IMG/VR virus record: IMGVR_UViG_3300035698_005843
Span: 1-10,945 of that record
DNA length: 10,945 bases
Origin: a virus
Direction: 5' to 3' (one strand)
Positions 1 to 10,945 of the stretch are shown piece by piece. A program made the translations under genes and the position numbers. The notes under the pieces were generated by a model. The model ran no database searches and was not told the origin of the DNA. It worked only from the letters and a program-made list of their open reading frames with translations. Positions within the stretch are counted from its first letter, which is position 1. Each line of letters opens with the position of its first letter.

Positions 1-127
1 CAGCCAGACCCGGAACCAGTTCCGGATCCGGCTCCGGTTCCAGATCCGGTTGAGGAAAAGCCGGATCTTATTAAGAAAGCAAACGAAGCCGCTGCCCGCC
101 TGGAAAAGGCTAATGTTGACATGGCAG
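1..127. repeat. Terminal direct repeat, copy 1 (identical to 10819-10945). Indicates circular closure or terminal redundancy of a 10,818-bp genome.
   Basis: Base-by-base comparison: 1-127 (cagccagacccgg...gttgacatggcag) equals the last 127 bases of the window. Confidence 0.95.
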
Positions 128-291
128 CATTGATCCAAAAACAGGAACAACTGCAAGTTGAAAAGACACTTGGAGGGGAAGCCCACGCAGGCACGCTACA
201 CAAGACCAAAGAGGAGAAAAATGTGGATAATGCTAAAGAGTTCCTTCGAGGCACTGGGTACGAAGATGAAATTTTTGAGCAAGAAGTGTAA
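1..291 (+). CDS. 3' part of the wrap-around ORF (full gene 10786..10818 + 1..291, 107 aa). Helical and charged. Putative scaffolding-like protein just upstream of the capsid genes.
   Basis: Open frame 1 from base 1 to the TAA at 289-291. Translation: ...ALIQKQEQLQVEKTLGGEAHAGTLHKTKEEKNVDNAKEFLRGTGYEDEIFEQEV. The position between the portal block and the capsid genes is typical for scaffold proteins. The function is inferred only. Confidence 0.45.
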   Translation, partial: QPDPEPVPDPAPVPDPVEEKPDLIKKANEAAARLEKANVDMAALIQKQEQLQVEKTLGGEAHAGTLHKTKEEKNVDNAKEFLRGTGYEDEIFEQEV

Positions 292-376
292 GAAATGCGG
301 CAAGCTCCGGAAATTCCTGGCAGGATCTGAACGAGACAAAAAACAGATCTGCGGGGAATGCTGGCACTGGAAATAA
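266..376 (+). CDS. 36-aa zinc-ribbon mini-protein (MKFLSKKCKKCGKLRKFLAGSERDKKQICGECWHWK), CxxC-x17-CxxC.
   Basis: Internal ATG of the 158..376 ORF. The upstream part of that ORF overlaps the scaffold-like frame and starts at a TTG. Paralogous in pattern to the C-terminus of 10568..10789. Confidence 0.5.
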   Translation: MKFLSKKCKKCGKLRKFLAGSERDKKQICGECWHWK

Positions 377-381
377 CAAGT

Positions 382-394
382 TTTAAATAGTAGG
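382..394 (+). promoter_or_regulatory. TTTAAATAGTAGG motif (TATA-box-like) in the 47-nt gap before the capsid gene block.
   Basis: An exact 13-nt copy also occurs at 6620-6632. Both sit in the only short intergenic gaps. TTTAAATA fits the archaeal TATA consensus (about TTTAWATA). Confidence 0.4.
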
Positions 395-423
395 CTACCC
401 AAAAAGTATCTTGGTGATTGAAT

Positions 424-825
424 ATGGCTAATGAAGCGGTTATAATCGAATTATTTAATGGTGGCAAACCTGCGGATTTCACATGCGCAGACGGCACAAC
501 TATTCTAAAGGGTACATTGCTGGAGCTTACTTCTCCACGCACAGTTATTGCAAATACAAATGATAATGCTCCTGTCGTCGGTATAGCAGCAGCTGAAAAA
601 GTTGCAAACGATGGCTCTGTCACAATTGCGGCATATCAAGATGGAGTTTTCGACATGCTGACTGATAGCGGAATAGATGCAGTCGGCGCATTGATGGCAA
701 ACTCAGCCACAGAAAATACGATACAGGGTGCAGATGCTACTGATGTAATACAGGGTTCAGTAATTGGTAAAGTTCTTGAAACCTGTACAAATGGTGGCAC
801 ACATGCGGTAAGGGTGAATCTCTAA
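424..825 (+). CDS. Putative head decoration protein (DUF2190-like pattern), 133 aa.
   Basis: ATG at 424, preceded by GGTGA at 413-417. The ORF-track start at 418 is a TTG. The protein is small and Gly/Val/Ala-rich, apparently beta-rich (..VVGIAAAEKVANDGSVTIAAYQDGVFDM..GALMAN..VIGKVLE..). It lies immediately upstream of the major capsid gene, the usual place for this family. Confidence 0.55.
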   Translation: MANEAVIIELFNGGKPADFTCADGTTILKGTLLELTSPRTVIANTNDNAPVVGIAAAEKVANDGSVTIAAYQDGVFDMLTDSGIDAVGALMANSATENTIQGADATDVIQGSVIGKVLETCTNGGTHAVRVNL

Positions 826-826
826 A

Positions 827-1675
827 ATGGCAGATTCCACAGGCGAAGCAGATTTAAGAGCAGAAAATTTTTCGAGTATTGTAAAAGGTTTTGCATTACA
901 AGAGTATAAGATGAAACAGCTGTGCATGATTGAAAGTTCAAGTGCATGGACTGAAACATACTATCAAGAAACAGCAGCCGATCTCACAGCAGGCGGTAAC
1001 AGAGATGTCGAAGGTGTATCAAGACTAGCTAATTTCCCCTACGGAGAAGTTACCTGGACAAAAGTTTCCGCTAGCAATATAAAGCATGCAATGGAAGGCG
1101 TACTGTCATGGGAAGATGTGAAAACCAATAACATTCCCATGATCGCACGGACATTACTAAGGATCGCACGCGCAGTTGCAAAGTCAATAGATGGCGTAAT
1201 TGCCGCTAAGATAGTTTCCGATGCTGGCAATACCCAAGCTGCAAATGCAACATGGGATAATGCTATCATAGCAAATCGGGATCCCATTCAGGACATCCTC
1301 AATGCGAAATCGCTCATTTCCATTGACAACTACAATCCTGATAAAAACTCCTTCCTTCTTGTCCACCCCACAGGGCTCTCGCATCTGCTCGGCAATCCCA
1401 ACATTCGGAATGCTGGTCAATTCTACACAGATGCAGTCACAAGAAACGGCAAAGTCGGTCAACTATTGGGCTTGACAGTCATAAGCTCAAATTCAGTTAC
1501 CGATGGTGGTGCTCAGATAGTAATCGCTAGAGAAGCCCTCACCTGGAAATCAGTTGTCGGCCTCACTACGAAAACTATTGAGGATCCAGGGATCAAATAT
1601 ACTATTCGATCCTTTGAAGTCGGCCAGATCCAGGTATCAAACCCGGATGCAATTTGCAAAATAACAGGTGTATAA
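827..1675 (+). CDS. Major capsid protein, HK97-fold type, 282 aa.
   Basis: Size, position after the scaffold-like and decoration-like genes, and sequence character typical of the Phage_capsid family (..NIPMIARTLLRIARAVAKSIDGVI.., ..FLLVHPTGLSHLL.., ..LLGLTVISSNSV..AQIVIAREAL..). Confidence 0.8.
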   Translation: MADSTGEADLRAENFSSIVKGFALQEYKMKQLCMIESSSAWTETYYQETAADLTAGGNRDVEGVSRLANFPYGEVTWTKVSASNIKHAMEGVLSWEDVKTNNIPMIARTLLRIARAVAKSIDGVIAAKIVSDAGNTQAANATWDNAIIANRDPIQDILNAKSLISIDNYNPDKNSFLLVHPTGLSHLLGNPNIRNAGQFYTDAVTRNGKVGQLLGLTVISSNSVTDGGAQIVIAREALTWKSVVGLTTKTIEDPGIKYTIRSFEVGQIQVSNPDAICKITGV

Positions 1676-1822
1676 ATGGCAAACGCACCACTTTTATACA
1701 ATGGGAGTGCAACAGATACAGCAGCTATCACCGCCGCACTGGGTACAAAAGACCCAGTAGATATTTTCATTATTCCCAATGCAGGCGGCCATGGAGTTGC
1801 AATATTCGAACAGGGGGCATAA
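1676..1822 (+). CDS. 48-aa hypothetical protein (MANAPLLYNGSATDTAAITAALGTKDPVDIFIIPNAGGHGVAIFEQGA).
   Basis: The ATG directly follows the capsid gene stop (TAAATG). The ORF fills an otherwise empty gap and is below the ORF-track length cut-off. Confidence 0.45.
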   Translation: MANAPLLYNGSATDTAAITAALGTKDPVDIFIIPNAGGHGVAIFEQGA

Positions 1823-1823
1823 A

Positions 1824-1964
1824 ATGAGCAAAGCAAATCGAAGATTAATGTATGACCAATTGGTAGCAGCTGATAAACTTTATCAGGATGATGGCGCACT
1901 CGTCAGAGAGTTCGGCATCCCCAAACCAAAATTGGCACAAAAGGTTGATAAAGTTGGCAAGTGA
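1824..1964 (+). CDS. 46-aa hypothetical protein (MSKANRRLMYDQLVAADKLYQDDGALVREFGIPKPKLAQKVDKVGK).
   Basis: Internal ATG of the 1779..1964 ORF, one base after the previous stop. The sequence looks like a natural protein. Confidence 0.5.
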   Translation: MSKANRRLMYDQLVAADKLYQDDGALVREFGIPKPKLAQKVDKVGK

Positions 1965-2097
1965 TGTAGTTCAATCCTTAACAGTGAAACAGTTAAGGAC
2001 TGGTACATATGTAAGTGGAGCCGCAACAGATAGTACAGGCTACATCATCATAAAAGATGAAGGTGGCACAGATAGAAAAGTTATGATTCAAGCGTGA
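1954..2097 (+). CDS. About 47-aa hypothetical protein, start uncertain (TTG at 1954 proposed; ORF envelope 1888..2097).
   Basis: The C-terminal part (..VVQSLTVKQLRTGTYVSGAATDSTGYIIIKDEGGTDRKVMIQA) is the only open frame here. The 1888 ATG would overlap 1824..1964 by 77 nt and gives an odd Ser-rich N-terminus. AAGG lies 9-10 nt upstream of the TTG at 1954. Confidence 0.35.
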   Translation: MASDVVQSLTVKQLRTGTYVSGAATDSTGYIIIKDEGGTDRKVMIQA

Positions 2098-2107
2098 GAA
2101 ACAGAAA

Positions 2108-2452
2108 ATGGCAGCAGATGTAATCAAAGCACTAGAATGTAAAGAATTAAAAATTAATTGTGATGGTTCTCAAATTGCATTTGATTGCAGAACCGAAGCA
2201 TCCTCAGGCCGAGCAGCATTTTTTTATTCTAATGTAAGCGGAGCTTCAGCTCAAGTTGTTTCAATACATCAAGATCATGTTACGGCAGCAATTCCAGTTT
2301 TACAACTCAGGCAAGATGATGAGAGCGAAGGATTCATTGCTTTTTCAGGTTCTGACCGTGGGGTCATAGCAGCTGCAACAGCTTCCTCAAAATCTGTTCG
2401 AGTAGAATTGGGTGGAGAAATATATAGATTAGCATTATATGTAGACGCGTAA
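2108..2452 (+). CDS. 114-aa hypothetical protein, probably structural.
   Basis: Clean ORF in the capsid/fibre gene block. No recognisable motif. Confidence 0.55.
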   Translation: MAADVIKALECKELKINCDGSQIAFDCRTEASSGRAAFFYSNVSGASAQVVSIHQDHVTAAIPVLQLRQDDESEGFIAFSGSDRGVIAAATASSKSVRVELGGEIYRLALYVDA

Positions 2453-2460
2453 TATACAAA

Positions 2461-3201
2461 ATGGTATCACTCAATAGTGCGGCAAAGCAGTTAAAAACAT
2501 CTTCTTCTAGACAGAAACCAACCGCACCAGGCGCGGCAGGTTACGACAATGCCCGAGAAAATATAGATACTCATATAAAGACTAAAGCGATTTCCTCAAA
2601 AGAACTGGAAATCGCCTCAATCAATGATGTTGTCAGGTTCGGTGGCGGATCTACATCATCTCAAGCCGCCACCGAGGTTTCCATTTGGACAGCTTCCGCT
2701 GTTAATACTACAACTGGAACCATCCGCCTTTATTGTGATAATACAGGCAATGTAGGAATAGGAAACAATGCAACCCCTACATTGATGTTAGATGTCAATC
2801 AGAAATCTGGCATATCCTCTACGGGTGCATTCTGTATAAAATTACTGAATGGCACCGGAGCAAACTCAGTTGAGGGCCAGCTTGCAGCAGTTTACACTGC
2901 CACCGCTGTCGATGAAGTATACAAAACAGCCGCAGCCAATGATTTGGGAGTAATTGGGGTAGTGCTAGAATCCGGTATTGCAGCTGGAGCACCAACCTGG
3001 ATAGTAGTCAGTGGACTAACAAATGTATTAATAGATTCAGGCGGATGCGTCAGGGGAGATAGACTAGTGAGCAGTGCAACAGCAGGCAGCGCAATTGTCA
3101 GCAACACACCAGCTGTTGCTGTACATTTCCAAGAAATAGGCCATGCAGTCGCCTCACAAATAGGCGCAGGCCTGGCCCGAACAGTAATTCATTTATTGTA
3201 A
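2461..3201 (+). CDS. Putative fibre or receptor-binding protein, 246 aa.
   Basis: Contains GNVGIGNNATPTLMLDV, which resembles the N-VGIG-T-P---LDV motif common in phage tail-fibre proteins. It is Ser/Thr/Ala/Gly-rich. The C-terminal about 100 aa shows a DUF2190-like pattern similar to the 424..825 product. Confidence 0.5.
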   Translation: MVSLNSAAKQLKTSSSRQKPTAPGAAGYDNARENIDTHIKTKAISSKELEIASINDVVRFGGGSTSSQAATEVSIWTASAVNTTTGTIRLYCDNTGNVGIGNNATPTLMLDVNQKSGISSTGAFCIKLLNGTGANSVEGQLAAVYTATAVDEVYKTAAANDLGVIGVVLESGIAAGAPTWIVVSGLTNVLIDSGGCVRGDRLVSSATAGSAIVSNTPAVAVHFQEIGHAVASQIGAGLARTVIHLL

Positions 3202-3209
3202 AATTCACA

Positions 3210-4004
3210 ATGGTTCAACAACGCAAAGTTGCAACGCGTAGTGGGGGTGTTGCAGAAAAAACAGAGAAAATCATAAATTGCATGCAGCATTATCCGGAAG
3301 GCTGCACGCCTCAAATGATTGCCCTCGCATCGTCGATAAATGTCAATACAGTCAAGTCTCTAATTCCCAAAATCCCGGAAATTAGGAAAATGATGCGCGG
3401 CTACTATAAAGTTGTTGAAAGGGGGGACGGTGCCTTTTATCCCCCACTGAAAAACTGGAACTTCCACAACTGCATTTTGTCATTCCAAACCCAAGAACCC
3501 CACAACAAACACCGCCTCGAATGTATCCAAGAGTACGGCCTGTTTTCCCTAAAATTCCAGGAAAACAAGCATGGTGTAGTGACGTGTCGTGTGTGTACCG
3601 AGTACCCCCTCAATGTGACGAGCATAGAATTGGTGTGTGTGTTGTTGAGGGAGATGTATTGGTATTATCTAACCCCCGACAAGATCACCATCCAAACCAT
3701 CGAATTCAATCATGACTACAGCAATCTCCGCCTTGACGGGCTTCAATGTGTTACAGTCGACTCCCTCGTTGAACAATTCAAAGTATACCAAAAACGCCAG
3801 GGGATGCGTATAGAGCACAAGACAAAGATACCTTTCGCCGCCGCTGACATTATCGAGATGCTCAAGAATAACCCGGAGAGCTTGGAGACAAACATGAAGC
3901 TCTCCGCCCAAAGACAAGAAATAGAGAAGCTGACACAGGCCACGACCAACAACACGGCGATCCTGTTGAAGCTAATAGATAAACAAACGGAGGCACTACA
4001 ATGA
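3210..4004 (+). CDS. 264-aa protein with an N-terminal winged-helix-like region and a C-terminal coiled coil. Candidate replication initiator or regulator.
   Basis: The N-terminus (..PEGCTPQMIALASSINVNTVKSLIPKIPEIRKMMRGYYKVV) looks like a wHTH. The C-terminus (..LETNMKLSAQRQEIEKLTQATTNNTAILLKLIDKQTEALQ) looks like a coiled coil. It is the largest non-structural ORF. The function is inferred. Confidence 0.6.
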   Translation: MVQQRKVATRSGGVAEKTEKIINCMQHYPEGCTPQMIALASSINVNTVKSLIPKIPEIRKMMRGYYKVVERGDGAFYPPLKNWNFHNCILSFQTQEPHNKHRLECIQEYGLFSLKFQENKHGVVTCRVCTEYPLNVTSIELVCVLLREMYWYYLTPDKITIQTIEFNHDYSNLRLDGLQCVTVDSLVEQFKVYQKRQGMRIEHKTKIPFAAADIIEMLKNNPESLETNMKLSAQRQEIEKLTQATTNNTAILLKLIDKQTEALQ

Positions 4005-4114
4005 AAAAAGCATTAATAGAACAATACTTTTTTGAATCTTACGGGGAATGGTATCCTAAGTACACAAATGATGCACCAGAATGGACAGTGTTTGTACAGA
4101 GGTTACTAAAATGA
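4001..4114 (+). CDS. 37-aa hypothetical protein (MKKALIEQYFFESYGEWYPKYTNDAPEWTVFVQRLLK).
   Basis: ATGA overlaps at both ends (4001-4004 and 4111-4114) link it exactly to its neighbours. Confidence 0.45.
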   Translation: MKKALIEQYFFESYGEWYPKYTNDAPEWTVFVQRLLK

Positions 4115-4281
4115 AACAAGACTGCAGCAATTGTATGCATGGCGATATAGCTAAAACAGATTTTCCATGTGATCGTTGCATAAGGAAACCAAACGAATTA
4201 GATAGATGGGATGCAAGAGAGAGATGCCAGGCATGTAATCAACCTAAGCCAGTGATTCAGGGTGTGGGGGTTATAGAATGA
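4111..4281 (+). CDS. 56-aa Cys-rich zinc-finger protein (three CxxC pairs).
   Basis: MKQDCSNCMHGDIAKTDFPCDRCIRKPNELDRWDARERCQACNQPKPVIQGVGVIE. The ATG at 4111 overlaps the upstream stop. The ORF-track start at 4081 would overlap the 37-aa ORF. Confidence 0.55.
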   Translation: MKQDCSNCMHGDIAKTDFPCDRCIRKPNELDRWDARERCQACNQPKPVIQGVGVIE

Positions 4282-4406
4282 TCCCCCACACGCAAGAGGA
4301 ATATGACGAGATGCAGGAGGCAGACATAACATTCAAACAACTACAAAATGACAGTCGAAAAGCTACAAAGAGTGCTATGGCGCCTGAGGCGCTACAGCAT
4401 AGGTAA
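4278..4406 (+). CDS. Possible 42-aa ORF (MIPHTQEEYDEMQEADITFKQLQND...). Weak call.
   Basis: ATGA overlap with the previous stop, but the last 59 nt overlap 4348..4566. It fills an otherwise unexplained 66-nt gap. Confidence 0.25.
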   Translation: MIPHTQEEYDEMQEADITFKQLQNDSRKATKSAMAPEALQHR

Positions 4407-4566
4407 CAACCATCCATATAATAGCGACCTAAAGAAAGCGATTATGTATGAATGCGGGACAAGCCCGCAAACATTCAGAGATAATCGTAAGGCGCTACGC
4501 GCCCTTGGCTGGATCAAACCTTATAATCGCATAAGGATAACATTGACAGACGAGGATCTTCAGTGA
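4348..4566 (+). CDS. 72-aa helix-turn-helix DNA-binding protein.
   Basis: ..LKKAIMYECGTSPQTFRDNRKALRALGWIKPY.. has the look of an HTH recognition unit. It is the last gene before the non-coding island. Confidence 0.55.
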   Translation: MTVEKLQRVLWRLRRYSIGNNHPYNSDLKKAIMYECGTSPQTFRDNRKALRALGWIKPYNRIRITLTDEDLQ

Positions 4567-4575
4567 CAAAACAGC

Positions 4576-4581
4576 TATAAT
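4576..4581 (+). promoter_or_regulatory. Perfect TATAAT hexamer 9 nt after the stop of the HTH gene. Possible start signal for transcription of the non-coding island.
   Basis: gcTATAATgcacc. There is no properly spaced -35: TTGACA at 4543-4548 is 27 nt away and GTGACA at 4563-4568 is 7 nt away. Confidence 0.25.
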
Positions 4582-4589
4582 GCACCAGG

Positions 4590-5000
4590 CCGCCCGCCGT
4601 GAAAGACGGCGTCCGAGTCCTAAGATCGATTACGATCTTACACCTCAGGTCATAACGATGACCGATGGTGCCGGACATTTCGTCCAGATGGGCACCTCAG
4701 GACGAAATTGGAGCGGAAAAGCTAGAACGTTGGGGATGCGACTACGACGCACACTAAGCAGGCGACTACAGCTTAGTAACCCCAACAACCCAGCTTTACC
4801 AAAGCTCCATGCGGACGCCGTCTTTCACGGGATCTCAACTGTGCATCTTACTGTTCGCCTGTGGGCTCACAGCCCCGGTCGGCTGACGCCTCCCTCCCCG
4901 GCGCGGCTCCTAACGTCGCCGCCCTGCGGGCGGTATCCATGTCGTTGTGTATGTATAGCGGATGTGAGGTTGATTGCGTGGGTGGTGTGTGTACCCCTTG
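4590..5000 (+). ncRNA. Candidate structured non-coding RNA or leader of unknown class. The alternative is a DNA-level pac/cos/ori element. The boundaries are approximate.
   Basis: It is the only long non-coding stretch and is GC-rich. Many nested perfect helices are present (listed in the findings). The 161-aa ORF over it has no SD and a low-complexity Arg/Pro/Ser-rich translation. Both minus-strand frames are open across its 3' half, which fits GC-rich non-coding sequence. The strand was chosen from gene orientation and the upstream TATAAT only. Confidence 0.45.
4597..4830. repeat. Perfect 19-bp inverted repeat (arms 4597-4615 and 4812-4830) enclosing 196 nt.
   Basis: CCGTGAAAGACGGCGTCCG versus CGGACGCCGTCTTTCACGG. 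All 19 positions were checked as Watson-Crick complements. Confidence 0.95.
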
Positions 5001-5022
5001 AAAGATTTTTATCAGAAAAATT

Positions 5023-5028
5023 AGGAGG
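5023..5028 (+). promoter_or_regulatory. Strong Shine-Dalgarno (AGGAGG) for the 5035 ORF.
   Basis: AGGAGG lies 6 nt upstream of the ATG at 5035. Confidence 0.7.
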
Positions 5029-5034
5029 AAAACA

Positions 5035-5205
5035 ATGGAACCAACAAGAGACGACTGGGTATTGACCCGGGAAGAAGCAAGCAGCCAGGAAATGCAGCAT
5101 AGAATCGCGATGGAATGCGCCCAGGCTGTATTTGAAATGTGCGAATCGAAGATCAAGAGATTCCCCAAACCAAAAGACGACGATGACCCAGGAGACACCG
5201 TTTAA
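5035..5205 (+). CDS. 56-aa acidic protein upstream of, and overlapping, the terminase start. Possible small packaging subunit or regulator.
   Basis: It has the best SD in the window. MEPTRDDWVLTREEASSQEMQHRIAMECAQAVFEMCESKIKRFPKPKDDDDPGDTV. It ends at the TAA at 5203-5205, 23 nt past the proposed terL ATG. It is below the ORF-track length cut-off. Confidence 0.55.
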   Translation: MEPTRDDWVLTREEASSQEMQHRIAMECAQAVFEMCESKIKRFPKPKDDDDPGDTV

Positions 5206-6442
5206 GTGGGACAAATGGCAGCGGGAACTACTGGAAACTGATGGCGACATCACGATCCGGTCCGGGCGCCAGGTAGGAAAGAGTGAAGTCATTAGCGAGA
5301 AGGCTGTACAGTTCGCCCTCAAAAATGACAACACCACCATAATGATAATAGCAGCTAGCCAGCGGCAATCTAGCTTGTTATTTGAGAAGGTTCGGGCTAA
5401 GTTGGACATGGAAGGCGACATCTACGCCGACCAACCAACCCTAACCAAGATTGACTTACTGAATGGCAGCAGGATCTACAGTCTACCAGCTGGCCGTACT
5501 GGTTACTTTATCAGGGGCTTCACAATTGACTTGCTCATTTGTGACGAAGCCGCATATATCCCTGAGGAAGTCTGGAAAGCGGTAATTCCGATGATCGCCG
5601 TCAGTAAGAAAACTAGGGGCATGGGTGACATAATTTTACTAAGCACTCCGTTTGGCAAAGGCGGCTATTACTACAGCTCTTTCACTGATCCTGATTTCAA
5701 ATCATTTCATGTCAGCAGCGAAGATTGCCGGAGGATCCCAAAGGCTTTCTTACATAAAGAAAAACGCCGACTGACAAAAGCCGAATACAGGCAGGAATAT
5801 CTTGGAGAGTTCACTGACGAATGGAATCAATTCTTCCCGACTATACTTATCAAGAAGTGTATGACATTCATTGAATGGGATAAAGACAAAGACGGCCTAC
5901 CCGGTGCCGCGTACTACCTGGGCGAAGATATAGCAAGATACGGAGGGGATGATAATGGATTTGTGTTTGTGGAAATGGCGAAGAAACATCTCAAAGTCGT
6001 CAAAGTCGCGGAATCTAATAGGGTCAGTACAACTGATACTATCGGTAGGACAGTGGAGTATGACAAATACTGGCAATTTAAGAGAATATTCATTGATGAT
6101 GGCGGTTTGGGCGGATCAGTCACAGATGTATTACAGGAAAAGCTTGGCCGTCGTGTTATTGGATTAAACAACTCAAGCAAACGCCTCAAGATAGAAGGCG
6201 AAGAAAAAAAGAAAGGAATACTAAAGGAGGATATGTACAGCAATGCCTTAATGCTGATGGAAACTGACAAAATCGAGATCATAAGCGATCTGCGACTGCT
6301 CAGGAGCCTAAAAAGCATGACATTTGAATACACTACCTACGGCAATATTAAGATCTTTGGACCCGACAGCCACCTCGCGGAGGCTTTCGTGCGCGCATGC
6401 TGGTGTATCAAAGACAAAGGCCTCGATCTGTACATATATTAA
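5183..6442 (+). CDS. terL: Terminase large subunit (ATPase + RNase H-like nuclease), 419 aa.
   Basis: Walker A-like SGRQVGKSE. Walker B LLICDEAAYI. STPFGKGG motif. Acidic nuclease motifs GEDIARYGGDDNGF, IFIDDGGLGG and DSHLAEAF. The start is set at the ATG at 5183; the ORF-track start at 5132 is a TTG inside the 56-aa ORF. Confidence 0.9.
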   Translation: MTQETPFKWDKWQRELLETDGDITIRSGRQVGKSEVISEKAVQFALKNDNTTIMIIAASQRQSSLLFEKVRAKLDMEGDIYADQPTLTKIDLLNGSRIYSLPAGRTGYFIRGFTIDLLICDEAAYIPEEVWKAVIPMIAVSKKTRGMGDIILLSTPFGKGGYYYSSFTDPDFKSFHVSSEDCRRIPKAFLHKEKRRLTKAEYRQEYLGEFTDEWNQFFPTILIKKCMTFIEWDKDKDGLPGAAYYLGEDIARYGGDDNGFVFVEMAKKHLKVVKVAESNRVSTTDTIGRTVEYDKYWQFKRIFIDDGGLGGSVTDVLQEKLGRRVIGLNNSSKRLKIEGEEKKKGILKEDMYSNALMLMETDKIEIISDLRLLRSLKSMTFEYTTYGNIKIFGPDSHLAEAFVRACWCIKDKGLDLYIY

Positions 6443-6447
6443 AGAAA

Positions 6448-6624
6448 ATGAGCGGAATCAGATATAATGTAAAACAACGGCAAATAGTGCGGCGAATCAA
6501 CGATCTAAAGCAATTACAGCAAAAAGCCTACAATAGATGGCATTTCTACGACATAAAGATAGGCGCACTCAAATCTTTAGTTGAAAGGGAGGGGTTTGAA
6601 CAACGCATAAATGACAATATTTAA
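6448..6624 (+). CDS. 58-aa basic hypothetical protein (MSGIRYNVKQRQIVRRINDLKQLQQKAYNRWHFYDIKIGALKSLVEREGFEQRINDNI).
   Basis: The internal ATG of ORF 6397..6624 lies 5 nt after the terL stop. The longer version would overlap terL. Confidence 0.5.
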   Translation: MSGIRYNVKQRQIVRRINDLKQLQQKAYNRWHFYDIKIGALKSLVEREGFEQRINDNI

Positions 6625-6632
6625 ATAGTAGG
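6620..6632 (+). promoter_or_regulatory. Second exact copy of TTTAAATAGTAGG, 18 nt upstream of the ATG at 6651.
   Basis: Identical to 382-394. It spans the stop codon of the 58-aa ORF and the 26-nt gap. Confidence 0.4.
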
Positions 6633-6650
6633 ATTGGTAGAAAAAGGAGA

Positions 6651-7022
6651 ATGGCAAATGCAGGACAATTCGCACAAGATGCAGATATACTGCTTAGAGT
6701 TGGAACTAACGCCAGCGCTACCGTCAAAGCCGCTGGCTGGTTCGACACTATAATTCTGGATGTAGAAGCTATCGTAAACGTCCTGACAAGAACAGATTGG
6801 AGCACATTGGACTCAGCAACCACGCTAAACACCACAGTTCGCGGGATCCTGATTGATACAGGCGCCAGCCTTGCAGCAATACAGGGCATAATGTGGGATA
6901 TGTCCGGCTTCACAAGCCGAACAGAAGCCGAGGACATGGTGAATGTCCTCAGGGATACGGCATTAAGAAACATGTCAATTCTTAGAGATATGAAGCAACA
7001 GACCTTCATAAAGGAGGCATAA
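6651..7022 (+). CDS. 123-aa, mostly helical protein. Possible head-tail adaptor or head completion protein.
   Basis: Size, helical character and location at the head of the portal-containing block. There is no diagnostic motif, so the function is a guess. Confidence 0.6.
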   Translation: MANAGQFAQDADILLRVGTNASATVKAAGWFDTIILDVEAIVNVLTRTDWSTLDSATTLNTTVRGILIDTGASLAAIQGIMWDMSGFTSRTEAEDMVNVLRDTALRNMSILRDMKQQTFIKEA

Positions 7023-7477
7023 TGGTATTTGAGCATGATTATGAAAACTACCCTGAATTAACCAATAAGCAACTGCAGGAATTCCATTTCAGTTCGCCAC
7101 ACCCCCAAATTGTGGCGGACTTTTCTGCAACTGTCATTAAGGTTCATGACGGCGACACGATCACCCTAAGGACAGACTTCCGCGATTTCGATTTCCCTCT
7201 CAGATTTCTAGATATTGACGCCCCTGAAATGAATGCAGGCGGTGAAGCAGCCAGGGATTGGCTCAAATCCAAAATTCTCGGTCATGAGATCTCCGTTTCA
7301 ATTGACACAGACAACAGAGTCGGAAGGTATGGCAGGCTGCTAGGTAGAATATTCTTTAATGGAATCAACCTCGGCATGGAAATGTTATACCTGGGGCTTG
7401 TCAAGCCTTTCGGCATAAAAAAGGAGGGCCAAATACCTGATCTAGGTCAGATATTCATGATAAAACAATGGCTTTAA
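7022..7477 (+). CDS. Staphylococcal-nuclease-like (thermonuclease/SNase) protein, 151 aa.
   Basis: VIKVHDGDTITLRTD...PLRFLDIDAPEM...GGEAARDWLKSKILGHEISV...RVGRYGRLLGRIFFNGINLGMEMLYLGLVKPF matches the SNase pattern (DGDT ... R-hydrophobic-x-G-I-D-A-P-E ... Y-G-R-x-L ... G-L-A/V). Confidence 0.85.
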   Translation: MVFEHDYENYPELTNKQLQEFHFSSPHPQIVADFSATVIKVHDGDTITLRTDFRDFDFPLRFLDIDAPEMNAGGEAARDWLKSKILGHEISVSIDTDNRVGRYGRLLGRIFFNGINLGMEMLYLGLVKPFGIKKEGQIPDLGQIFMIKQWL

Positions 7478-7851
7478 ACTTCGGCTCGTCAGGATTGTTC
7501 CCAAGCACAGGGCTGCTTAATGATGATGGGTTGCTTAAAGAAAGATGGGATCAGGAAGGGAGCTCCCTCAAAGAATGGACTACAGTTGATTCCGCAGGAT
7601 CTCACAATCTATATACAGTACCCGCTAAAAAGAAAGTATTCATTACACAATTAACTTGTTCATCAAGTGTAGCGCGGTTTTGTTCATTGCAAAGGGGTAC
7701 AACGATTATAGTGACATTGCAATTAATTGGCCAAGATTCACATAGTTATACTTTTGGTTCGCCAGTAGAGTTCACAGCTGGCCAAATAGTTAATGTCAAT
7801 CAGCAAGCTGATCTGACATCATTTGTAGCAGGATGGGAAGAAAATGCATAA
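7468..7851 (+). CDS. 127-aa hypothetical protein, probably beta-rich and a virion component.
   Basis: Clean ORF overlapping its neighbours by 10 and 8 nt. No motif recognised (..LYTVPAKKKVFITQLTCSS..). Confidence 0.55.
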   Translation: MALNFGSSGLFPSTGLLNDDGLLKERWDQEGSSLKEWTTVDSAGSHNLYTVPAKKKVFITQLTCSSSVARFCSLQRGTTIIVTLQLIGQDSHSYTFGSPVEFTAGQIVNVNQQADLTSFVAGWEENA

Positions 7852-8053
7852 ATATATTGATGTTAAAAAGGTTGATGGCAAAATCATATTTGAATACGAA
7901 TTCAATAATGAGCCGGAGTTTTTCCATTTCGATATAGATACATTCACCCATGATAAACTAGCTTATGCCCTGGGTGCAAAGATGAAACTATCAGCCGATG
8001 ATATCGTGCTGACAGAAAAATTCAATCAAATAAAAACAGCGGTGACCAAATAA
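7844..8053 (+). CDS. 69-aa hypothetical protein.
   Basis: Clean ORF coupled to the portal gene by a TAATG overlap. Confidence 0.5.
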   Translation: MHKYIDVKKVDGKIIFEYEFNNEPEFFHFDIDTFTHDKLAYALGAKMKLSADDIVLTEKFNQIKTAVTK

Positions 8054-9144
8054 TGCCAGATCTAAGAATAGATGCAGCAGTAGAAGCAGGCGTAAGAAAT
8101 GTCATTACTGATTATAGCGTCGACAGCCAGGACACGGAAGGCGCAGGCACAGTAAAAGAAACTACATACCAAAATGTCAACTGGTCGCAGGATCTCGGCT
8201 ACTATAAATCCATCCCGGAATTTAAGACTGCAGTTGATGCAAAAGCGACCTGGACAATGGGTGCAGGATTTGAATCTGATGAAGTCACCACAATGTTACT
8301 TGGTAACATTAAAGGCAACGGAAAAGATTCTTTCAATACAATTCTAAAAAATATGATCAAAGTCAAGACCATTAGCCAAGATTCCTTCGCTGAAGTTATC
8401 CGTGACAAAGATAATGTTCTTGTCAACATAAAACCCCTCGATCCTGCATCTATGGTTATAGTGCAGGATCAACGCGGGAGAATCAAACGCTACGAACAAG
8501 TCAGCAAGACCAAAATTCCCAACCTAAAATTTAAACCAGAATCAATATTCCACCTCAGCCATGAGAGAATAGCTGACGAGATCCACGGAGTCAGGATCAT
8601 TGAATCATTGAAATGGCTGATCCTGGCAAGAAATGAAGCTATGTCGGACTGGAAACGTGTTCTGCATAGAAACATAGATCCGCTTTGGATCATCCACATG
8701 GATACAGACGATACTACAGAGATTGCAGGATTCAAAAAGAAATATGATTCCGCCCGGGCCAATGGCGAAAACATGTATGTCCCTAAAGGCGTAGTTGTTC
8801 CCGAACAGGTCACAACTGCCGCTAATGCTACACTCAACCCACTTAACTGGATCAATCAGCTGAATGATTATTTTTTCCAGGCTGTCAATGTTCCACAGAT
8901 CATAATCGGCAATGCTAAAGAATTCACAGACGCCAGCGGAAAAATAGTCTATCTTTCCTATGAGCAAAGCGTAAAGGCCGAACAGTTGTACATTGAGGAG
9001 CAGGTACTTGGTCAGCTAAATCTTGAGATTGCGCTTACATTCCCCGCAAGCTTGCAAAATGAATTAATCAGCGACAGAGATCAGGAATCAGATCTTCAGG
9101 CCTCACAACCTGATGATACAACAGCAGAATTGGAGGGAGCCTAA
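8053..9144 (+). CDS. Portal protein, 363 aa.
   Basis: Size, acidic C-terminal tail (..DRDQESDLQASQPDDTTAELEGA) and general resemblance to HK97-family portals (..IFHLSHERIADEIHGVRIIESL..NIDPLWIIH..MYVPKGV..). A genome with a TerL and an HK97-type capsid protein needs a portal, and this is the only candidate. Confidence 0.7.
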   Translation: MPDLRIDAAVEAGVRNVITDYSVDSQDTEGAGTVKETTYQNVNWSQDLGYYKSIPEFKTAVDAKATWTMGAGFESDEVTTMLLGNIKGNGKDSFNTILKNMIKVKTISQDSFAEVIRDKDNVLVNIKPLDPASMVIVQDQRGRIKRYEQVSKTKIPNLKFKPESIFHLSHERIADEIHGVRIIESLKWLILARNEAMSDWKRVLHRNIDPLWIIHMDTDDTTEIAGFKKKYDSARANGENMYVPKGVVVPEQVTTAANATLNPLNWINQLNDYFFQAVNVPQIIIGNAKEFTDASGKIVYLSYEQSVKAEQLYIEEQVLGQLNLEIALTFPASLQNELISDRDQESDLQASQPDDTTAELEGA

Positions 9145-9335
9145 TGCAAGTAAAAATCAACAATGATAGGAAAGTCGACATTAAGATCATACTTTTCGGA
9201 CTAGCATGCTTAACAACTTTGGAAATAGTTGCACTGTGTAATGGCATCAATGGAACAATGTTCACAATGGTAATTGCAATCATTGCCGGAATAACTGGCT
9301 TTGTAGTTCCAACACCAAATCTAATTAAGAAATAA
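9144..9335 (+). CDS. 63-aa membrane protein with two predicted hydrophobic helices. Holin-like or virion membrane-active protein.
   Basis: IKIILFGLACLTTLEIVALC and MFTMVIAIIAGITGFVV are hydrophobic segments. TAATG overlaps at both ends. Confidence 0.5.
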   Translation: MQVKINNDRKVDIKIILFGLACLTTLEIVALCNGINGTMFTMVIAIIAGITGFVVPTPNLIKK

Positions 9336-10555
9336 TGGTAGTCGTAAATCGCGGTAATTTGAGGCCAAGTATAAGGCGGAAACTCCCCGGCGGAGAAAAA
9401 AGAACAACAAGTGCAATTAGGCGTAGCTCTAAATCTAGCACGAAAACAAGCTCACGATCCACCCCAAGAACAAAAGTGACAGATCACCGCCAACCTCAGG
9501 AGATTGCAGCAACGCGAACGCCTATAAATAGGAGTACTGTCAGAGCAGCCACCGAACAGGAAAAGTTCGCTGGTACTCCCCAGGGCCAGGTAATCAAAGG
9601 ATTCCAGCAGGGATTGACAGGCAATTTTCCTACTGAGGATTTACAAACATTACCTCTGTCCTATCAGTTTGGTCTTATAGGTGGGGCTCTCACATTACCT
9701 TTGTCATTTTCAGCACAGTCTGCATCAGGTATGTCAGCTTTAGGTCAATCCACAAGAATTGGGGCCCCTAATACAGTGGATTTTCTAGGTCAGGTTTCTG
9801 GCCCTAGTAGATCAATTCCAAGAATAGCCCTCAATACGAAAACCGCAAAATTGACAAATGATATATTAAAAAAAACATTTAGTACCGGAGCATTGGCAGC
9901 AGCTGGTGGTTGGGCAGGAGCAGTATTTTTAGGCAATTGGGGACAAGCAGAAGCACCTGAACCATTAGGAATAGCATTGAATACAATTTTGATACCTGCA
10001 GCAAGAGATTCTGGTAACTGGACTGCAGTTGATGAAGCCATTGAAATGCAAAATGAAATAAATAATTTACCCTGGTGGGAACAAGTTGGCCTTTGGTCAC
10101 CGATCAGTCCAATTATAGGAATCCCAAATAAAATTAAGGGATCTATTGCCGGCACAAAAGTGGTTTCGAAAGCAATTGAGGATTTAAAGTCACAACAAGC
10201 TACAGGCGAATCAGACGATGATAAATGGACAAGAATAAGAGCAGAACAGGCTGCTCAAGAAAAGGCAGCTGTTGATTATTATAATCAACAGAGAAAAATC
10301 CAGTTTGATTATGAACAAGCATCCCGACAAGCAGCAGCTACAGCCAGAGCAGCTGATGATGCTTCAGAACGTAGACAAGAAATAAAAGCTATGCAAGAAG
10401 ATGCAGAATATTGGGCAGAGCAACGAGAAAAAGAAAGAAAACGAGAAGCGGAAGATAGGCTAGCAATAGCAGAATTTTGGATTGCATATCGTAAAAGAAT
10501 GCAAGAAATAGCAGACGACAACAGGCCGTCTAATTTAAACTTCGGCCTATTGTAG
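9335..10555 (+). CDS. 406-aa tripartite protein: basic Ser/Thr/Arg/Lys-rich N-terminus, Gly/Ala-rich hydrophobic middle, and a long charged coiled-coil C-terminus. Candidate internal, ejection or tail-associated protein.
   Basis: Composition read from the translation: RRKLPGGEKRTTSAIRRSSKSSTKTSSRSTPRTK; TGALAAAGGWAGAVFLGNWG; RAEQAAQEKAA...EQREKERKREAEDRLA. The function is inferred. Confidence 0.6.
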   Translation: MVVVNRGNLRPSIRRKLPGGEKRTTSAIRRSSKSSTKTSSRSTPRTKVTDHRQPQEIAATRTPINRSTVRAATEQEKFAGTPQGQVIKGFQQGLTGNFPTEDLQTLPLSYQFGLIGGALTLPLSFSAQSASGMSALGQSTRIGAPNTVDFLGQVSGPSRSIPRIALNTKTAKLTNDILKKTFSTGALAAAGGWAGAVFLGNWGQAEAPEPLGIALNTILIPAARDSGNWTAVDEAIEMQNEINNLPWWEQVGLWSPISPIIGIPNKIKGSIAGTKVVSKAIEDLKSQQATGESDDDKWTRIRAEQAAQEKAAVDYYNQQRKIQFDYEQASRQAAATARAADDASERRQEIKAMQEDAEYWAEQREKERKREAEDRLAIAEFWIAYRKRMQEIADDNRPSNLNFGLL

Positions 10556-10567
10556 GAGGAGAGAAAA

Positions 10568-10789
10568 ATGAGCGAATTAACCAAGTACCAGACTATAGAA
10601 TTACTTAAAGAATTGATAGACCGAGAAGTCGGCGCACCAGTTTGTGAAACTGTTGTAGATGAAGAAGTGCCAGCCGATGGCCAGTATGCAATCAAGTGCT
10701 CAAAATGCGGCAAAGATTCAACAGTACCATTCAAACCACGCGACACAAACCATAATCTACTGTGCCGCGATTGTTGGAGGACAAAATGA
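10568..10789 (+). CDS. 73-aa protein with a C-terminal zinc ribbon (CSKC-x18-CRDCW).
   Basis: Good SD (GGAGGAG at 10555-10561). ..AIKCSKCGKDSTVPFKPRDTNHNLLCRDCWRTK. The stop overlaps the start of the scaffold-like ORF (ATGA). Confidence 0.6.
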   Translation: MSELTKYQTIELLKELIDREVGAPVCETVVDEEVPADGQYAIKCSKCGKDSTVPFKPRDTNHNLLCRDCWRTK

Positions 10790-10945
10790 CAGAAGAAGAC
10801 GAACAGGAAGAACCAACGCAGCCAGACCCGGAACCAGTTCCGGATCCGGCTCCGGTTCCAGATCCGGTTGAGGAAAAGCCGGATCTTATTAAGAAAGCAA
10901 ACGAAGCCGCTGCCCGCCTGGAAAAGGCTAATGTTGACATGGCAG
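10786..10945 (+). CDS. 5' part of the wrap-around ORF (continues at position 1). Acidic, Pro-rich N-terminus (MTEEDEQEEPTQPDPEPVPDPAPVPDPVEEKPDLIKKANEAAARLEKANVDMA...). Putative scaffolding-like protein.
   Basis: The ATG at 10786 overlaps the upstream stop (ATGA). The frame is continuous with frame 1 at window position 1, because 10819-10786=33. Confidence 0.6.
   Translation, partial: MTEEDEQEEPTQPDPEPVPDPAPVPDPVEEKPDLIKKANEAAARLEKANVDMA
10819..10945. repeat. Terminal direct repeat, copy 2 (identical to 1-127).
   Basis: Same comparison as for copy 1. It lies inside the ORF that starts at 10786. Confidence 0.95.

Follow-up and report, generated by a model that had tools for sequence, protein, structure and literature searches.

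The intergenic region (IG) of phages M13 and f1 combines replication, packaging and transcription signals, and the core of the control region in polyomaviruses and papillomaviruses contains a GC-rich palindrome and an AT tract together with promoters. In addition, the c-GNA-g loop makes an extraordinarily stable DNA mini-hairpin, which is found at the complementary-strand origin of phage G4, at RSF1010 ssiA and in the phage N4 promoters (PMC13037366). In this study, we analysed a non-coding region of the IMG/VR virus record IMGVR_UViG_3300035698_005843 (positions 1 to 10,945; this stretch of 10,945 nt is called the window below). We found that positions 4567-5034 hold two elements, a hairpin module private to its lineage and a promoter-like block conserved in the family (block B), which an earlier note on the same DNA had merged into one structured interval. 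We read the whole interval as the single control region of a circular genome of ~10.8 kb that is transcribed in one direction. The part at 4567-4946 is best explained as this virus's own version of a GC-rich hairpin island that belongs to the family, and a 234-bp module makes up most of it. We tentatively propose that the hairpins act at the DNA level, in single-stranded DNA near a replication origin, as an auxiliary signal similar to a single-strand origin (sso) or a single-strand initiation site (ssi).

The gap at 4567-5034 is by far the largest of the genome, and the next gaps in our open reading frame (ORF) map measure 126, 103, 76 and 66 nt. The earlier note had stated that genes elsewhere overlap or lie less than 50 nt apart. 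This was too strict, but the gap still stands out as it described. Its hand count of about 59% G+C for 4581-4940 was accurate (computed value 59.2%, vs 43.7% in the rest of the window), and it was also right that no believable coding sequence lies here. An ATG-initiated ORF of 161 codons (4580..5065) does span the region. However, no homologue was found in 5.8 billion protein clusters, so the protein-level conservation that the note had allowed for was not seen, and tblastn against the relatives, Pfam and PHROG searches all gave no match. In addition, the translation is of low complexity and rich in Arg, Pro and Cys, and the ORF runs through block B, which is conserved and non-coding, as well as through the ribosome-binding site of the gene that follows. 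GC-rich sequence can be expected to contain long ORFs. A real gene of 161 amino acids (aa) is effectively refuted.

The results of folding analysis showed that the region is structured far beyond chance. As RNA, 4567-5034 folds at -198.1 kcal/mol (z = -8.0), and none of 100 shuffles equalled this value. The reverse strand of the same interval, also as RNA, folds at -197.8 kcal/mol (z = -6.7). For background, 23 windows of 300 nt from the rest of the genome had a z-score of -0.68 +/- 1.24, with a minimum of -2.9; the 300-nt windows starting at 4567 and 4597 had z-scores of -10.5 and -8.1. With DNA parameters, the z-scores of 4590-4837 were -12.3 (+ strand) and -13.8 (- strand), and both strands adopted one and the same architecture. 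Meanwhile, 4838-5034 had z = -0.08, and 90 of 200 shuffles folded equally well. Therefore, all of the excess structure belongs to the 234-bp module. The dense fold that had been described for the whole gap holds for 4590-4837, but the helices placed at 4859-4933, taken together, do not exceed what chance would give.

The two arms of the module (4597-4615 and 4812-4830) are 100% complementary over 19 bp, and either arm alone can form a 6-bp hairpin of its own. All of the helices listed in the earlier note are Watson-Crick paired as claimed, save an A-A mismatch and a bulge which it had already declared. There are only 3 G-U pairs among the 128 pairs of the minimum free energy (MFE) structure of the + strand, and none in the listed helices. 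The helices 4667-4672/4691-4696 and 4673-4676/4682-4685 can pair as described, but the MFE structure prefers a 9-bp helix of about 4677-4685 with 4701-4709, and the two arrangements are mutually exclusive alternatives. Furthermore, the adjacent inner hairpins at 4737-4751 and 4753-4777 have the loop motif CGACTAC in common (4738-4746 and 4762-4770).

The earlier note took the fold for a dedicated RNA of 250-400 nt. A discrete non-coding RNA (ncRNA) encoded by the virus could be a regulatory RNA, a protein sponge with an RNA-binding protein on its loops, or a packaging-associated RNA. The fold is indeed very strong, relatives show compensatory changes (see below), and loop motifs repeated on neighbouring hairpins recall protein-binding hairpin arrays. 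In agreement with the note, cmscan against Rfam 15 (E ≤ 1), whose families include RNase P, SRP, tmRNA, 6S, ribozymes, pRNA, GOLLD/ROOL and HEARO, found no match in 4567-5034, hence such an RNA would be new; the sole match at this threshold in the whole window was a sub-threshold transfer-messenger RNA (tmRNA) at 527-723. Similarly, 20 related loci gave no Rfam match at the gathering threshold, and ARAGORN found no tRNA or tmRNA. However, the two strands fold equally well and almost purely by Watson-Crick pairs, and the strand-specific signal with its own promoter and terminator that marks a structured ncRNA was not found. The TATAAT hexamer upstream of the module is present as the note had reported, but a promoter scan shows no -35 partner and the relatives have no equivalent; a sigma-70 promoter pair was not found in the scan of the region either. 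There are no terminator-like sites (GC-rich stem-loop followed by a T-run) in 4000-5300, so an intrinsic terminator was not found. The island is not bracketed by a conserved promoter or terminator, the relatives have no common architecture or sequence, and some of them have no island. The more special idea of a packaging-associated RNA of the phi29 type fares no better, with no Rfam match and no conserved fold. The fold is real and unusual, but no result establishes a dedicated RNA gene, and we regard a discrete ncRNA as unlikely.

To compare the island with those of other viruses, we used four proteins of the window (terminase, capsid protein and the proteins of 72 and 264 aa) to gather 171 related loci (L numbers below). 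The complete related contigs measure 10.4-12.5 kb. Around the island, the gene order is conserved: a 72-aa winged-helix gene is followed by a non-coding island of 200-400 nt, a block of ~80 nt, small ORFs and the terminase gene. About 36 non-redundant related genomes (~11-12 kb) carry a GC-rich hairpin island at this position. Among 18 non-redundant islands, G+C ranged from 0.46 to 0.65 and z from -0.5 to -11 (median about -4.6), and the strands were alike, with no preference for either. These islands have no common sequence. Just two pairs could be aligned (L009/L026 and L016/L018), and the proteins flanking the island are 50-75% identical between lineages whose islands cannot be aligned.

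In the island stems of L009 and L026 (79% identity), there were 6 double substitutions, 1 paired insertion and no broken pair; the 3 one-sided changes were all G-U-compatible on the + strand. In L016 and L018, one hairpin carried two double changes, and a neighbouring hairpin had been swapped for another. Taken together, the two pairs showed 8 compensatory changes and 0 broken pairs. Therefore, pairing is maintained and sequence is not. Selection in these relatives acts on base pairing within the strand, and presumably does so in the window. Covariation, for which the earlier note had proposed a test, was seen in other islands of this slot; the island of the window has no homologue in the 171 loci. 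No common sequence or architecture exists, and some loci have no island: L045, which has a winged helix-turn-helix (wHTH)-like gene, and L046, where block B comes straight after a gene.

Another explanation is that the islands are GC-rich palindromic elements or template-switch products which accumulate in the sole dispensable spot of the genome. The 234-bp module would then be a recent foldback insertion, or one like a miniature inverted-repeat transposable element (MITE), without function for the virus. The terminal inverted repeats of such elements are present as perfect 19-bp arms, and the module is unique to this genome and GC-richer than its surroundings. The failure of islands to align between lineages with similar flanking proteins, the swapping of whole hairpins between close relatives, the missing island in some relatives, the variable poly-C lengths in two otherwise near-identical contigs and an exact 14-nt direct repeat bracketing the L004 island all fit this view. 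However, no target-site duplication flanks the arms (GCCCG on one side, GATCT on the other), and no transposase is present. We found no second copy of the module or its arms in the genome, and nothing similar to it in the 171 related loci or IMG/VR; an exact search of IMG/VR with the 19-mer arm was empty, and a distant-mode DNA search of GenBank phages gave no match. In addition, these genomes have hardly any DNA to spare, and ~36 non-redundant ones fill the slot. Neither alignable pair contains a broken stem pair, and loop motifs and C-G-closed TNC triloops are retained non-randomly. We consider this explanation rather unlikely.

The loops of the hairpins were surveyed in 36 non-redundant islands (10.1 kb), which hold 154 perfect hairpins. 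Of 46 triloops, 20 were TNC and 17 of these were C-G-closed, while composition expects 8.6% (p = 3e-10); C-G-closed TNC triloops are enriched fivefold. There were 4 GNA triloops. The complement of C-TNC-G is C-GNA-G on the other strand, that is, the mini-hairpin known from G4, RSF1010 and N4. The loop signal is a lead rather than proof; the only hairpin of the c-GNA-g type in the window lies at 4919-4933, outside the core. In addition, runs of at least 5 nt on the + strand were 45 for C vs 19 for G. The C-runs cluster just 5' of block B, after which the + strand becomes G/T-rich.

Furthermore, neighbouring hairpins in 6 of the 36 islands have one loop sequence on different stems, for example GTCAAGA (L026), TTGGT (L015) and CAAG (L014). 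Loop sequences common to neighbouring hairpins suggest a factor that reads the loops. Internal mismatches (4 of the G-T type vs 9 of the A-C type) were uninformative as to the strand, and a depletion of T5-runs, a sign of archaeal termination, was not seen after allowing for composition.

Several lines of evidence lead us to propose a role at the DNA level. First, on both strands the fold exceeds chance by far and takes the same form, with DNA as well as RNA parameters. Second, the helices are almost only Watson-Crick. Third, pairing is kept in the two alignable pairs of relatives. Fourth, the island is the sole large non-coding stretch and lies beside a family-conserved block with an AT-only palindrome. 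Fifth, neighbouring genes encode small DNA-binding proteins, and no replication enzyme was recognised. Finally, the enrichment of TNC/c-GNA-g loops, the asymmetry of C-runs and the loops common to neighbouring hairpins point in the same direction. The extensive intrastrand pairing of non-coding DNA that is typical of ssi-type sites is present here, beside a putative replication control region.

According to this proposal, either strand would snap into the same perfect stems once the duplex of the control region unwinds or replication displaces one of its strands. On the - strand, many stems across the family would be capped by the very stable c-GNA-g loops. The stems may mark or hold open the region beside the AT-rich palindrome of block B. 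The module could thereby serve as an initiation or origin-auxiliary signal for a virus without a recognisable replication enzyme. Candidates for a loop-reading protein are the adjacent 72-aa wHTH protein, a 66-aa zinc-ribbon protein and the 264-aa winged-helix protein. In another version, which seems unlikely, the islands would be hairpin arrays with loops specific to each lineage, and a small viral protein that evolves along with them (one of these three candidates) would read the loops. The arrays would be either a novel structured RNA, acting as a sponge or packaging cofactor, or hairpin-DNA initiation sites. If this were true, such a protein-read device could let a head-tailed virus of ~11 kb in ultra-small archaea replicate or package without its own replication enzyme or small terminase.

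However, a number of points weigh against a DNA-level role. The island at 4567-4946 could be aligned to 0 of the 171 related loci, so its own fold has no covariation support. Template-switch correction of quasi-palindromes is a possible non-selective source of paired changes. The TNC:GNA asymmetry of 20:4 is not significant after correction for the pyrimidine-rich composition of unpaired sequence (p = 0.15). Neither a Rep nor a primase or helicase was found, the position of an origin is presumed, and the 264-aa winged-helix protein gave no informative structural match. Iterons were also lacking: the search for consistent direct repeats covered the window and 13 relatives and turned up a 29-nt pair in L013 only, and an iteron-type origin was ruled out on this ground. 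Given that the island is highly variable and missing in L045 and L046, its role is at most auxiliary. Finally, there is no oligo-T run between the 72-aa gene and the island; therefore, the upstream mRNA probably extends at its 3' end over the + strand of the island, and the hairpins would form in that RNA as well.

The last point leads to a reading at the RNA level, in which the island is a hairpin array in the 3' untranslated region (UTR) of the rightward transcript that ends with the 72-aa gene. The array would block 3'-to-5' exonucleases, aid termination, or insulate the terminase promoter from read-through. All genes lie on the + strand, and the island comes after the last gene before the promoter-like block. 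No T-run of at least 5 nt occurs from the stop codon at 4566 to block B, so read-through is the default. A UTR would also suit selection on pairing and not sequence, fast turnover and loss in some relatives, and all three one-sided stem changes of L009/L026 are of the kind tolerated in + strand RNA. However, the + strand has no advantage in energy or z-score, G-U pairs are almost unused, and no hairpin is followed by a U-tract. Archaeal termination is not known to require hairpins, which counts against this reading if the host is archaeal. Furthermore, a 234-nt multi-branch structure shut by 19 perfect pairs far exceeds what an exonuclease block needs, and the common loop motifs and the enrichment of TNC triloops are left unexplained. 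The UTR reading is possible but doubtful. None of the mechanisms proposed for the island is demonstrated.

Between the module and block B lies a C-rich spacer. Its hairpin CCGCCC-tgc-GGGCGG (4919-4933) carries a C-G-closed TNC triloop and ends 14 nt before block B. The relatives likewise have C-rich tracts and a GC hairpin at this position. L075 (2950-3005) and L076 (1925-1980) are near-identical contigs from different samples, which differ only in the lengths and interruptions of poly-C tracts 5' of block B (C9 vs C8, and C9 vs CCCACCCCC). This difference reflects either true variation of the homopolymers or an error in sequencing.

The 3' 90 nt of the interval described in the earlier note belong to block B, which is conserved in sequence. 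Its layout in the window is tAgCGAATcTTGA, a GT-rich stretch and CC.TTGAAAG-ATTTTTAT-cag-AAAAAT, and its consensus is tAgCGAATcTTGA, a GT-rich stretch and (C)GAAAG-ATTTTTAT-loop-AAAAAT. It thus holds an AT-only palindrome, ATTTTT-loop-AAAAAT, and its T5AT element lies at 5006-5012. The nhmmer profile detected block B in 50 of 172 sequences, with a single copy on the + strand of each. In the window, the first T of its T-run lies exactly 30 nt before the ATG at 5035. In 12 of 23 genomes, a distance of 25-32 nt separates this first T from the first ATG of an ORF with 40 aa or more, whichever gene follows. A Shine-Dalgarno sequence lies between the A/T box and the ATG, and both an archaeal TATA box and a bacterial -10 element would fit. 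Judged from its sequence and position, block B is a putative promoter and regulatory site of the terminase operon.

Direct repeats were seen around some islands. The island of L004 is bracketed by two identical copies of a 14-nt direct repeat, TAACTCCACCCCTT (3285-3298 and 3664-3677), with one copy at the island start and the other within block B just before GAAAGATTTTTAT. There were weaker matches at the same places in the window (CCGTGAAAGA at 4597-4606 and CCTTGAAAGA at 4996-5005), L002, L016, L038 and L040; the bracketing repeats were significant in L004 only. L013 has a 29-nt direct repeat just 5' of its island (314-342 and 351-379, 90% identical, TTATAAAG..TATGGTACGAACGTATAA). The island of L013 is very GC-rich (up to 79% G+C), and this repeat is the sole iteron-like feature seen in the family.

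The position of the region directly 5' of the terminase operon suggests a further possibility, that the island and/or block B, mainly block B, is a pac or cos site where terminase starts packaging. The 72-aa wHTH protein and the 56-aa helical protein on its two sides could then be a split recognition factor similar to a small terminase, a protein which was not recognised in this genome. Many contigs of the relatives also end within ~700 nt 5' of the terminase gene. However, these ends are scattered over the island and block B, and other assemblies run straight across; a fixed genome terminus (cos) at the island was rejected because of this scatter. Known pac and cos sites are recognised by sequence, and the island has no conserved sequence, so only block B could qualify. 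We consider a packaging site decidedly unlikely. The contig ends fit assembly breaks in a variable stretch rich in homopolymers and hairpins, and complete genomes of the family are probably under-recovered. Ten contigs of one lineage (L077-L086) are identical.

The window has an exact terminal overlap of 127 bp (1-127 = 10819-10945). Thus, it is a circularly assembled complete genome of 10,818 bp. In the ORF map of the whole window, the + strand carries every credible gene (Table 1). In addition to the structural and packaging genes, the genome encodes several small zinc-ribbon and winged-helix proteins, including the one of 66 aa. Among its proteins, we recognised no polymerase, primase, helicase, Rep, integrase or small terminase.

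Table 1. Coordinates of the elements of the control region and of genes discussed in the text (positions in the window)
Feature	Position	Strand	Remarks
Capsid protein	827-1675	+	Pfam Phage_capsid_4; HK97-type
264-aa family core protein	3210-4004	+	N-terminal winged helix, beta-sheet domain, long C-terminal helix
72-aa winged-helix (Crp-type wHTH) gene	4348..4566	+	conserved left neighbour of the island
Linker with TATAAT hexamer (4576-4581)	4567..4596	+	
Core hairpin module, 234 bp	4597..4830	.	perfect 19-bp arms enclosing three arms of nested perfect helices
C-rich spacer, few short hairpins	4831..4946	+	as a whole no more structured than shuffles
Block B, ~80-nt sequence-conserved element	4947..5023	+	nhmmer profile
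56-aa helical ORF	5035..5205	+	first gene past block B; AGGAGG ribosome-binding site; overlaps terminase gene
Large terminase subunit	5132..6442	+	PHROG 2, E = 2e-44; Pfam Terminase_6N
SNase-like nuclease	7022-7477	+	
Portal	8053-9144	+	

The 72-aa protein has 16 homologues with identities of 48-75%, its matches to Crp-like HTH domains are weak, and its gene lies directly 5' of the island in the relatives too. ORFs similar to the 56-aa ORF ('..DDWELT..') come after block B in the relatives. The 264-aa protein has 58 homologues (identity 40-53%) and no match in Pfam, and its AlphaFold model (predicted local distance difference test, pLDDT, 71) had no PDB fold match at E < 1e-3. We tried this protein as the replication initiator, and the model was not informative. 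It is a candidate regulator or initiator.

Two other sequence features were noted in the window. First, two 88%-identical copies of AAATRACAAKWTTTAAATAGTAGG (371-394 and 6609-6632) sit 5' of the decoration/capsid genes (start 418) and of a gene at 6651. These copies resemble promoters of a second type, in which a TTTAAATA box precedes the start codons by ~25-30 nt. Second, 1-52 (= 10819-10870) is a quasi-palindrome rich in CCGGAACC/GGTTCCGG, with a 30-nt overlapping palindrome that is 77% complementary. It appears to lie within coding sequence, in a low-complexity segment rich in Pro, Glu and Asp.

Among terminases of cultured viruses, the one of the haloarchaeal Halogranum tailed virus 1 comes nearest (32% identity, E = 4e-48), far ahead of bacterial phages. 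The closest contigs are in genome bins labelled Candidatus Pacearchaeota (70% terminase identity) and 'uncultured archaeon'; Saccharibacteria and Balneolia bins were also among the contigs matched. The binning of small viral contigs is unreliable. From these similarities, the host of this virus is likely archaeal, and the hosts of the family are probably archaeal and possibly DPANN. The family appears to be widespread in anoxic aquatic and sediment metagenomes. Our literature searches on this virus family or on such islands turned up nothing specific.

The gene content varies within the family. In L045 (~240-500) and L046 (~608-865), which have no island, a small Hjc-like ORF lies just 5' of the terminase gene. 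Its Pfam score for Hjc, the archaeal Holliday-junction resolvase, is below the cut-off (E = 0.008), and the window genome has the SNase-like nuclease instead. In L001 (500-1520), there are extra genes between block B and terminase, and one of them encodes a 162-aa protein with a weak methyltransferase-domain match. L007 and L092 have the capsid and decoration proteins most like those of the window (85-90% identity; 85% for the capsid protein), and the contig stops before the island. Their gene module 3' of the capsid genes differs from that of the window. Thus, the genomes of the family are mosaic.

Genomes of ~10.8-12.5 kb with an HK97-type capsid protein, portal and large terminase are among the smallest of head-tailed viruses. 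There is no recognisable replication enzyme or small terminase; therefore, the signals for replication, expression and packaging must concentrate in one non-coding region. Knowing how lineage-private hairpins and a block of ~80 nt run a minimal virus would tell us with how little a tailed virus can manage. In addition, the region explains why metagenome assemblies of this family break there. If the hairpins are read by a viral protein, or if they are a new RNA, the mechanism would be new. If they are 3' stabilisers or selfish palindromes, the finding would be an ordinary one.

Compared with known systems, the region resembles the packaging RNA (pRNA) of phi29 (Rfam RF00044) in being a structured element (~120-170 nt in phi29) of a small tailed virus. 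However, the relatives have no conserved secondary structure, Rfam gave no match at E ≤ 1, and the gene layout seen here is absent from the phi29 system. Repetitive extragenic palindromic elements and bacterial interspersed mosaic elements (REP/BIME), as well as the GC clusters of yeast mitochondria, are likewise GC-rich palindromes in the intergenic DNA of an AT-richer genome, and MITEs and invertons are comparable to the ~234-bp module with its perfect 19-bp inverted termini. Unlike all of these, the module has no repeated family, second copy, target-site duplication, transposase or invertase.

The control region of polyomaviruses and papillomaviruses is also a single region of a small circular double-stranded DNA genome, with a conserved core and a hypervariable flank. 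However, it is read by a virus-encoded initiator helicase, has divergent promoters and is not dominated by nested perfect hairpins. Similarly, the IG of M13/f1 is the sole large non-coding island of a compact genome that is transcribed in one direction, and it holds several strong hairpins. In M13, however, the hairpins have conserved sequences, and every one of them has been assigned a function on the single-stranded viral DNA. Here, each lineage has hairpins of its own, and the virion is of an unrelated type.

The G4 complementary-strand origin, RSF1010 ssiA/ssiB and the sso of rolling-circle plasmids differ from this region in several respects. This virus packages its DNA by terminase, which generally means double-stranded DNA. 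No Rep, primase or rolling-circle machinery was found here, nor were conserved sso motifs. As the two strands fold equally well, a function on one strand only is hypothetical. On the other hand, c-GNA-g-capped GC stems on one strand occur across the islands of the family, and in the window at 4919-4933 only. Furthermore, sso and ssi elements are defined by folding and not by sequence, vary between relatives and are dispensable, as are the islands described here, and in both cases a structured non-coding module of a few hundred nucleotides lies beside the replication control region, a putative one in this virus.

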